This document shows, piece by piece, positions 47,279 to 50,200 of a stretch of 64,000 nucleotides of DNA. Each line of letters opens with the position of its first letter. Position 1 is the first letter of the stretch. The notes under the pieces are model-generated. The model was not told where the DNA came from, did not search any database, and saw only the letters and a program-made list of their open reading frames with translations. This DNA comes from a virus. The position numbers and the translations under genes were made by a program. The stretch is taken from the IMG/VR virus record IMGVR_UViG_3300031669_005140. One strand, given 5' to 3'.

Positions 47279-50200
47279 ATGCCAATTAGAAAGTTTTCGG
47301 TAAATGGAGAAGTTCTAAGCATCCCCGATGAACAGGTCGGTGATTTCCTTAAGGATATTCCACAGGCAACTGAGGTTAACCAGTTTGTTGTTGGTAAAGA
47401 TACACTCACCATTCCGTTGGATCAGGTAGATGAGTTTTTAAAGGATGTCCCAACGGCCAAACCATTGGATGCAGTAAAAAAAAAAGAAGACTCGCAAAAA
47501 AGTCCAAGCGAACCAGTATCTTTGGATTTGCAAAGCCAAAGCACCGATTTACCAAAATCTGTAGAGCAATACTCGCAGGAGTTGCCAGGCGTCCAAAACG
47601 ATCTGAGCCAGCCCCTCGTTTCTTCCGAATCAAAATCGAAATCATTTTCCCAGCAGGTAGCTGGTTCTGGCATAACAAATAAGCAGATAGACGTATCTAG
47701 CACGCCTATTAGCGGTGCAGCATTAGACCTTAATGTTCGTAAGAATACTCGCAAAAATATTGCAGAGATATTACCCTCGTTGCAGGAGCAGAAGGACGAA
47801 ATATCTAAGCAAATAAACGATTGGAATCAGCAGCATAAGTATATATATGAAGGTTCTGGGGAGAAAATTCCTGCTCCAATAGTTTCTGGTGCTGGTGCTA
47901 ATTTTAATTCAATGGCAGATATGCCAATGCCTACTGAATTAGTAGAATTACAAAATAAATGGAAGAATATTAATACGGCTCAGGATATGCTTCAACGAGC
48001 ATACGATGCAGCTGATCCAGAAAAATCATCTCATGGGTCTAATACGTTTGGTTGGGGCGGAAGATTTCTGTCCTCTTTTAAGGATGCAGACTGGATGGAT
48101 GTCTTAACCATGGGCATAAAGGGCATGGTAGAAACTACAGATGTTATTAATATTGATCAAAAAGCACAAGGAGAAGGCTTGACTACATTAGATGCTCCAG
48201 ACAAGGCATTACTTGCGGCATATGCTACATTAAAAGATGTGCAAGGATTTCGCGATCATAGTGTTGCCTCTAGTGCTGGAGATATGACTATATCAGCGAT
48301 TCCATTTTTGGTTCAGTATGCTCTAACTGGTGGAATTGGAGCAGCAACTAAGTTAAGCATAGAAAAGGGAGGTGCAGCATTACTTGCCAAGTTTGGTGCT
48401 AATTCTGCTGCGTCATCTATGCTTCGTGCTGGAATAAAAGGAAGTGCATTTGTTGCACAAGGAACGGTTAGATCGCTATTTACCACTATGGCTCCAGAGG
48501 CCGTTTTGGATAGGAAACTAGGAACTGAGGCAATTGTTGGTGGTATTGATAAGGATGGTCAACTAAACGTTAAAAGTATTGCCCCAGGAGAGGGATGGGG
48601 CGAAGCAGCAGCAAAGGGATTAACCACCAATGCTCTTACATTTGTATGGGCAGGTGCTGGAGGAATGATAACAAAGGGATTAGGTGAGGTTGGAACTAAA
48701 ATTGGTGGCGCAGTTGCTCCAAAATTGATGAGCAGAATGAACGCCTATGCTAGTGTTCTTTCAAAGACGGAGGCGGGGCAGTGGATGGCCAAGACATTTG
48801 CAGACAAGGCTGTGTTGGGTCGGGCTAAGACAGCGATGGGATGGCATGGGTTTGTTGGACAGATAGGAGAGATGCTGGGAATGACCTATAGCCAAGCAGC
48901 CGTTACTGGAGATAAACCTATACTAGATGCTGTAAGCAGAAAAGACTTATTGACAATGATGGCCAGCGTAGGAGCCATGAGTGGAACGTTTTTAGCATTA
49001 AATGCTTCATTCAAGGGTAAGGCAAAACCTGAAGCGATAGATATAGACCCAGAGTTGGCCAAAGGAATAGATGATATTATTTCCAAGAATAAGGATGCTA
49101 CTGATATTGCTGTTGAACTTGATTCTTTCTTTGCTGCTAATGCCGCAAATGATAAGGAGGCTAATTCGTTATTTTATTATGCGGCCAGTAAACTTAGAGA
49201 AAAAGGTAAGAATGCGGGAACTGATGTAACCGATGGTTTAGACGGGAAGGAGTCTGCTGCTGTTAAGGCTACTCTTGATGAGTATGTTGCAGGGCAGAAA
49301 GAGATGTTATCCAAGGAAGGTGCTCACCCTTCTGATTTAGCGGATATAAGAGAGGGCGATATAGATGCAGATGCGTTAGACCATGGTATTGCCAAGAAGG
49401 TAGAGGATGCTGTTCCAGATGTTGTGGCTAAAATTAATGAGCTGGAGACAGCCAAAGCAAAGCTATACGATAGTAATCTCGAAGAGGGTAATGTTTCGGA
49501 CATATCTATGCAAGAGTCCGAAATAAACGGACAGTTGAAAGATTTATATGCACAAAAGAATGCCAAGAGGCAAGAAATACTAGATAGCTGGAAACCAGAA
49601 AAAACTAAATCAAAAACGGAGGACGTAAATAATGAAGAAGCAATCAAAACTGGGATCGGGGAAACGGTTCAAGAAAGTGGAAGAGGCAGCAGCGAAGTCG
49701 GGAGCAAAGAACCCAGCAGCAGTAGCAGCAGCCGTGGGAATGAAGAAGTACGGCAAAAAGAAAATGGAAGCAATGGCCAAGAAGGGCAAAAACCGAAAGA
49801 AGAAAGACCTGTCGGAAAAGCAGGAGAAGGCAATGGGCAAGAAAACGTAAAGCCCATAGATGAGCAGATTAGGTCATTAGAGGCAGAGCGAGATGCCAAG
49901 ATTGCTGAAATTCCTTCGGATAAGACAGCAGATATTCAGGCCGTGAAGGATGAGTATGGTAAAAAGATAGATGAGTTAAAAATTAATGTTGGAGGAACAG
50001 AAAATGCCACTGGGGAAATCGGTAAGCAAGAATATAAAGGAACTCTACAAGGACAACAAGAAGAAGGGAAAAGCACGGGGAGCGAACGGAAAGTTACGCA
50101 GCCGGAAGCAGATAATAGCAATAGCGGAGAGCGCAGCGGGGAAATCAAGGCGCAAGAAGAAGTAGTTCCGAAAAAGGAAAAGTCTCAGTCGTGGGCCATG

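Follow-up and report, generated by a model that had tools for sequence, protein, structure and literature searches.

The IMG/VR viral record IMGVR_UViG_3300031669_005140 was analysed over a stretch of 64,000 nucleotides (hereafter the window), in which a single open frame of 2488 codons (47279..54745, plus strand) encodes P0003, a giant protein that is probably carried in the virion as cargo and ejected. Two small, complete open reading frames (ORFs) are nested within this gene, on the same strand and in phase +1 relative to it (the frame of the giant gene is termed frame 0). ORF1 (49632..49850, plus strand) specifies 72 amino acids (aa) with an isoelectric point (pI) of 10.5, and belongs to an unnamed family recognizable by the pattern ‘KLGSGxRF...NPAAVAAA...KKYGKKKM’. 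ORF2 (50004..50165, plus strand) specifies 53 aa with a pI of 11.3 and is DUF6496/phrog_2423-like. Lysine and arginine make up 35% of these proteins. A first-pass annotation, made from the sequence alone, had placed two ORFs in the +1 frame of an E/G/S/Q-rich stretch at this site, each with a GGAGG ahead of it, and both ORFs and both motifs were found as described. The first GGAGG (49618..49622, plus strand) lies 9 nt 5′ of the ORF1 ATG, and a TAA in the +1 frame (49626..49628, plus strand), one codon ahead of that ATG, shuts the frame just upstream. The second GGAGG (49991..49995, plus strand) lies 8 nt 5′ of the ORF2 ATG at 50004. ORF2 has an additional in-frame ATG at 49986 but its homologues begin at the 50004 ATG (‘MPLGK’); the nearest upstream +1 stop sits two codons before the former and eight before the latter. 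Between the two ORFs is a spacer (49851..50003, plus strand) that is read in frame 0 only and has a normal thymine (T) count. The whole arrangement falls within a hypervariable linker cassette (49589..50413, plus strand; residues 771-1045 of P0003), delimited by a gap in homology to the protein P0244.

An open +1 frame is in itself unremarkable here, because the stretch is poor in T (AT skew 0.57-0.67), the probability that +1 is open given the frame-0 protein is 0.07-0.09, and further nested ORFs of 43-58 aa occur within the same giant gene. Frame 0 read across the nested ORFs is acidic and rich in E, G, S and Q, with a pI of 4.8 and only 2 aromatic or cysteine residues in 175. With so little T, stops are rare in every frame of this purine-rich, low-complexity sequence, which is what an origin of both ORFs by chance would call for. 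Chance was nevertheless rejected, on homology and not on openness: the matches reach E-values of 1e-15 to 1e-18, the alignments to free-standing genes are full-length, the nested ORFs score 108-109 bits against hidden Markov models (HMMs) of their families, and the AlphaFold2 model of ORF2 is confident. The likelihood left to chance ORFs is close to nil.

Among 5.8 billion proteins searched, ORF1 has 300 homologues (75-86% identity, E down to 1e-15) and ORF2 has 338 (79-96% identity, E down to 1e-18), nearly all of them 50-60 aa long. Both nested ORFs align with these end to end and share their start codon. The first-pass annotation had recognized in the two peptides a resemblance to small basic genes that stand alone in other phages, the second of them DUF6496-like, and had proposed HMM and BLAST searches as a check; the Pfam and PHROG matches, the hundreds of stand-alone homologues and their genomic contexts bear this out. 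ORF2 matches Pfam DUF6496 (PF20106) over profile positions 7-50 of 58 with E=3.4e-4 and 21.4 bits, under the gathering cut-off of 24 bits, and matches phrog_2423 with E=0.007. Many of its matches at 80-96% identity carry the PF20106 annotation, some at ~86%, and the homologue P0007 in L001 is labelled ‘PF20106 (weak)’. The C-terminal ‘KQxIAIA’ helix is common to ORF2 and DUF6496, and Q42, A45, I46 and A47 are invariant in an ORF2 alignment that takes in a typical DUF6496 gene from L004. The subgroup ‘MPLGK...NIKELYKDNKK’ to which ORF2 belongs is tight and has only 31% identity to a typical DUF6496 member. On these profile scores ORF2 is DUF6496-like, short of a certified member. No model of the ORF1 family exists in Pfam, NCBIfam or PHROGs.

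Both small proteins are predicted by AlphaFold2 to adopt small helical folds, ORF1 as two helices with a predicted local distance difference test (pLDDT) score of 76 and ORF2 with a pLDDT of 87. They have no sequence relative in the PDB and no structural analogue was obtained, with no Foldseek match and a best VIA Z-score of 3.9; the protein atlas places them only in unnamed viral clusters. Neither matched anything in INPHARED, a result of little weight given that the BLAST low-complexity filter probably masks lysine-rich queries. The ORF2 family profile (positions 35-48, ‘KQIIAIAxSAAGK’) gives weak repeated matches, E ~2e-5, to the TALE-repeat motif ‘QVVAIASxxGGK’ in PDB chains. This likeness was taken as chance, as it covers only a 14-residue ‘QxxAIA’ stretch of a repeat protein and no single stretch passes. 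DUF6496 is a family without known function, and no mention of it was found in the literature searched.

Elsewhere, members of both families are ordinary genes. In IMG/VR, 170 of 171 family hits (160 loci) are free-standing, and in every context retrieved the homologue sits between other genes in a phage structural region: 3′ of the Dit gene in L001 and L002, and in a small-gene cluster upstream of the sheath and tube genes in L004, L013 and L014, with further free-standing homologues in L011 and L012. The two families also keep company, separated by no more than a few hundred bases in L004, L013, L014, L022, L147, L050, L052 and L076. The 64-kb window holds no second copy of either family beyond ORF1 and ORF2. 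In L176 (4461-5767) and L013 (9462-11665) the homologues occur in runs of at least five consecutive small lysine-rich genes. Such blocks of small basic proteins, often with DUF6321 and DUF6496 and upstream of tail or sheath genes, are recurrent.

How can such genes lie inside a long frame without closing it? The probability that frame 0 is stop-free was computed with the small protein held fixed and its synonymous codons drawn from the usage of this phage, and is 9e-4 for ORF1 and 1.6e-4 for ORF2, or ~1e-7 jointly. Third codon positions of the +1 frame carry T (hereafter T3) in 0/72 codons of ORF1 and 1/53 of ORF2, against 36% phage-wide, whereas free-standing homologues have 14-24% T3 and 2-6 stops in the equivalent frame. 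T3 is avoided even where no stop would result (10.1 and 7.0 expected, 0 and 1 observed), and therefore frame-0 codons that begin with T (F, Y, C, W, L, S) are shut out, the outcome expected of a hydrophilic spacer. This depletion is confined to the two ORFs, most of which hold 1-3 T per 30 nt versus 5-8 in the spacer between them. Frame 0 is held open across both ORFs by selection, through recoding. The suggestion in the first-pass annotation that the apparent linker is an off-frame translation of the small genes is in keeping with this: the limits of the ORFs are exactly those of T depletion and of the E/G/S/Q composition.

The +1 frame has been kept intact as well. Identity to free-standing homologues at +1 codon positions 1, 2 and 3 is 0.80-0.86, 0.86-0.91 and 0.31-0.41, and position 2, the best kept, is the wobble position of frame 0. 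All columns that are ≥90% conserved in other members (95 others for ORF1) are retained in the nested copies, 26/26 in ORF1 and 27/27 in ORF2, a test that is flattered in favor of intact proteins by homologue sets picked for their similarity to the query. Third positions are saturated and rich in A and G (A 0.34-0.39, G 0.45-0.47, C 0.14-0.19); many substitutions have therefore occurred in place, none of them hitting conserved small-protein residues. As in the embedding of Rz1 in Rz, both frames thus bear marks of selection, frame 0 in its probability of being open and its T3 count, +1 in its periodicity and in 53 of 53 columns. Capture and dual coding, with both readings maintained by selection, are well supported.

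Capture is supported by the nearest relative. P0244 (2420 aa), the sole fairly close homologue of P0003, shows 35-38% identity over residues 1-770 and 1046-2488, with homology ending at residue 770 and restarting at 1046. Its capacity to encode the small genes was gauged from a best-case back-translation of the protein in all shifted frames against shuffled controls. Whatever the shifted frame, no more than 18-19 of ~50 family-consensus residues can be accommodated, equal to the null level; the linker of this phage, used as a positive control, gave 47/49 and 47/51. Neither small family is encoded by four distant P0003 homologues for which DNA is available, and no relatives of the giant gene with DNA were found in viral_contigs, metagenome_contigs or genome_contigs. 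To judge from these comparisons, the small genes are acquisitions into a hypervariable linker, a conclusion drawn because P0244 cannot encode either of them; the earlier proposal that whole genes were captured in a tolerant linker holds up, since P0244 aligns on both sides of residues 771-1045 and not across them. In wastewater run X3, short contigs of a more divergent relative match this phage until 49586 and again from 50432, and differ between. These break points fall at the same borders as the loss of P0244 homology, and the contigs hint at a relative with a different linker cassette at the same site.

Both alternative frames are free of stops in GC-rich free-standing copies, L170 for example. 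A GC-rich phage could accordingly have been the donor: its insert would have been tolerated immediately, and later drift toward A/T could have used A only. The same fact can be turned to a rival account, in which the captured DNA serves as mere spacer and the +1 ORFs are silent passengers, intact through recency or through the limits set by frame 0. Insertion of a copy like that in L170 would need no later recoding, and the nearest relative manages without both genes. Set against this, the A/G-rich third positions are unlike GC-rich donor usage and imply many in-place substitutions that left the +1 proteins undamaged. The ATGs, the GGAGG motifs and the +1 stops have all been kept, and the layout recurs in L108 (below).

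Strain variants bear on the same issue. In wastewater and sludge runs of three studies, contigs at ~97-99% identity span the two ORFs, free of indels and of new stops in both frames; a fourth run (X14) reaches over the first half of ORF1 only. An assembly artefact is excluded because variants from three studies retain both frames. Inside the ORFs there are 10 single-nucleotide polymorphisms (SNPs), of which 4 are synonymous and 6 non-synonymous in the +1 frame (ratio of non-synonymous to synonymous polymorphism, pN/pS, ~0.5). The latter comprise two K>R changes, an A>T at a variable site, two changes in a non-conserved tail, and G8R. Read in frame 0, the same SNPs are 3 synonymous and 7 non-synonymous, and outside the ORFs the figures are 18 and 12. 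A +1 pN/pS of only ~0.5 from 10 SNPs, together with G8R in one strain, suits silent passengers. A frame 0 this tolerant, with 7/10 SNPs non-synonymous, cannot however account for the highest conservation falling on its own wobble position (0.86-0.91), or for the survival of all 53 columns. The spacer-only account is a possible but doubtful one.

A second nested case was found in L108 (IMGVR_UViG_3300025916_000226, GC 0.60), where a 1535-aa ORF (2563-7170) holds both families at 3986-4252 and 4253-4564, with gene order and +1 phase as in P0003. This ORF is unrelated to P0003 except in the off-frame stretch, and its neighbor encodes an SLT transglycosylase domain and matches ‘internal virion protein’ PHROGs. 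T3 is 0/88 and 4/103 in the two nested genes versus a background of 0.17, and the probabilities of an open frame are 1e-2 and 2.6e-3. AAGGAG lies 9 nt upstream, and the pair is joined by a TAAATG stop-start junction. A search for relatives of the L108 host ORF returned only its own contig, and the flanks of the two nested cases show no similarity. The off-frame peptide was also tried as a signature of nesting: as a single-sequence query it found nothing, and as a two-row alignment it found only free-standing copies (L176, L177) plus L108 again.

Two unrelated host genes with the same nested pair recall the ShiLan domain, an out-of-frame HNH insertion in actinophage methylase genes through which the host frame stays open (PMC11855218). 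A selfish element of this kind would move between the linkers of large virion genes, leaving the host frame open so that the host gene survives. The published precedent of an out-of-frame gene in an in-frame-open insertion (PMC11855218) favors it, as does the distribution: the pair is found in one lineage, is absent from the nearest relative, and reappears in an unrelated large ORF. The two nested ORF1-family copies moreover agree at 0.62 of third positions, compared with 0.31-0.41 between nested and free-standing copies. This value could indicate shared nested ancestry or just shared constraints, as 0.62 is also attainable from a shared exclusion of T combined with a bias toward acidic frame-0 residues. 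Searches of Pfam, NCBIfam and PHROGs gave no nuclease, integrase or other mobility domain in either small protein. With only 1 nested case in 171 IMG/VR family hits and dissimilar nested flanks, a selfish element is distinctly improbable.

The ORFs share strand and +1 phase with what a programmed frameshift would need, and such a shift would give N-terminal fusions of P0003 ending in small-protein domains. Frameshift-made C-terminal variants are known in phage structural genes, tail assembly chaperones among them. The fusion model was rejected, since the TAA one codon before the ORF1 ATG and the stop two codons before the 49986 ATG mean that only a partial domain could be joined. The ATGs lie exactly at the starts of the homologues, there is no long A/T run for slippage, and the junction in L108 reads TAAATG. 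A frameshift product is thus a very improbable source of the small proteins.

Initiation from within the giant gene is the preferred alternative. GGAGG at a spacing of 5-12 nt precedes 17 of 1429 plus-strand ATGs, both nested starts among them. The nested ATGs occupy positions homologous to the starts of free-standing genes, and the L001 homologue of ORF2 likewise has GGAGG, 7 nt upstream of its ATG. The nested start regions are weakly structured like those of real starts (−2.9 and −6.6 kcal/mol). Several observations nevertheless weigh against translated, selected small proteins. GGAG or GAGG stands upstream of just 3/77 genes of this phage, at background level (7.7%), the leaders being A-rich, G-poor and without a Shine-Dalgarno (SD) sequence. 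A start-site matrix places the ORF1 ATG at the 85th percentile of all ATGs and that of ORF2 at the 66th, and 79% and 90% of true starts, respectively, score higher. The terminase has its nearest counterparts, at 25% identity, in Flavobacterium, Cellulophaga and Maribacter phages, and the hosts of Flavobacterium and Cellulophaga phages generally do not use SD. Among the strains, G8R changes an invariant glycine in one run, the SNPs are too few to be decisive on selection, and apart from L108 the nested state is known only from near-identical strains.

The A-rich leaders without SD are the pattern expected for a putative Bacteroidota host, and GGAGG at the nested starts looks like baggage from a donor that did use SD. 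The GGAGG noted in the first-pass annotation is present but, as a ribosome-binding site, is foreign to this phage's own starts, with the 3/77 genes at background. That SD is not this phage's initiation signal, and that the start-context scores are mediocre, again fits silent passengers in a spacer. No promoter- or terminator-like site on the plus strand of the region exceeds the shuffled expectation. The runs labelled RNA-Seq are metagenomic complementary DNA kept as contigs, and are uninformative on expression.

Weighing these lines together, we put at roughly 0.6 the probability that a captured two-gene module is dual-coding here and that its small proteins are translated from inside the giant gene. 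The events might be pictured as follows. A module comprising a ‘KLGSG...NPAAVAAA’ family gene and a DUF6496-like gene, both for small and very basic proteins, would have been acquired horizontally and placed wholly in a disordered linker between conserved residues 1-770 and 1046-2488, one base out of phase. Frame 0 would then read its Lys, Ala and Gly codons as an acidic, aromatic-free E/G/S/Q spacer, so that ribosomes run through and complete the full-length giant protein. The +1 frame would keep its own ATGs, upstream in-frame stops, stop codons and inherited GGAGG motifs, and late in infection internal initiation would yield the small proteins together with the cargo protein. As to their role, 35% K+R, the high pI and the neighborhoods of the homologues make nucleic-acid binding or a virion-internal accessory function the most likely guess. 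The first-pass annotation had seen in them possible DNA-condensing or core proteins, a role that is conjectural.

The identity of the host protein has to be approached through gene order. The window carries a plus-strand structural module with the large terminase at 24924, followed by tail-fiber-like genes, large virion genes and a series of ORFs of 1496, 244, 522 and 2488 aa. P0003 matches no Pfam or PHROG family and gave no tblastn or megablast match in 50,697 INPHARED phage records. Its distant homologues (2128-2534 aa) are preceded by a muzzle gene (crAss_MUZ) and a pair of mid-size genes, an order matched in the window. The 1496-aa protein has no Pfam hit and only a weak match to a muzzle fragment of a distant homologue's locus. 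In ΦcrAss001 the muzzle gp44 is followed by the cargo proteins gp45 and gp46 and then gp47, which are packaged in the virion and ejected (PMC10172136). The two layouts are alike in having a large muzzle-like gene, two mid-size genes and a giant gene for a product of ~270 kDa, and by gene position alone P0003 is probably a virion cargo or ejection protein, the putative counterpart of gp47. P0003 has no sequence match to any INPHARED phage and showed no homology to either gp47 or the RNA-polymerase-associated domains of that protein, and nested genes in gp47 are not described in PMC10172136. Just 3′ of the giant gene (55121-57145, plus strand) is a gene for a 674-aa protein with Laminin_G_3/ConA-like lectin and polysaccharide deacetylase domains, possibly an enzyme that the virion carries to act on polysaccharide at the host surface. 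Elsewhere in the window two long ORFs of 396 and 389 aa (10984-12174, minus strand, and 11114-12283, plus strand) overlap almost completely on opposite strands, and only one is likely to be real.

Overlapping genes in phages offer several points of comparison. Lambda Rz1 lies entirely within Rz, in the +1 frame (PMC5295617; PMC6139136). In each case a larger phage gene harbors, in its +1 frame, a small gene that is complete and has a start of its own, and both readings are kept. Rz1, however, is regarded as having originated where it lies and functions together with Rz, whereas ORF1 and ORF2 are captured members of old, widespread families, two nested genes whose host reading is a low-complexity linker and whose translation is predicted from sequence. 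In phiX174, E lies within D and B within A, and PMC8227390 sets out the overprinting model. The internal +1 overlap is common to both systems, and so is the more narrowly distributed reading that is compositionally odd or disordered, as expected for the younger frame. Under classical overprinting the new reading is the short, nested one; here the short frames are old and the segment of the long ORF is new. With the ShiLan domain (PMC11855218) the likeness lies in a foreign gene inside a phage gene, absent from relatives, with the insert protein in another frame and the host frame stop-free throughout, all of which was found at this locus. ShiLan differs in that its cargo is a homing endonuclease, which explains its spread, while the small proteins here have no nuclease or mobility domain, and in that its site is an enzyme loop rather than the disordered linker of a giant virion protein. 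This case stands apart in that the nested genes are old, widespread, captured and unrelated to mobility, that the younger reading is a segment of the long ORF, and that the host is the linker of a giant virion protein. No description of such captured-gene nesting was found in the literature searched.

Gene callers forbid fully nested genes, and two members of large conserved families are consequently invisible in this genome. The route to overlap is an unusual one, with old genes captured and a long ORF laid over them, and its signature of T3 near zero offers a simple screen for more cases. The same pair nested in two unrelated large virion-associated ORFs points to a link with giant proteins that are packaged or ejected. 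Because the start codon of either nested gene can be abolished by a substitution that leaves the giant protein unaltered, that link is directly testable. That the nesting is adaptive and general, with basic partners encoded in the linkers of giant packaged or ejected virion proteins, is an unlikely extension of the finding. If true, the small proteins would be made from the same late mRNA as the cargo protein and in step with it, perhaps traveling with the cargo or the DNA. Annotation pipelines would then be throwing out a concealed layer of phage genes, in which the host ORF overprints pre-existing genes, the reverse of classical overprinting.

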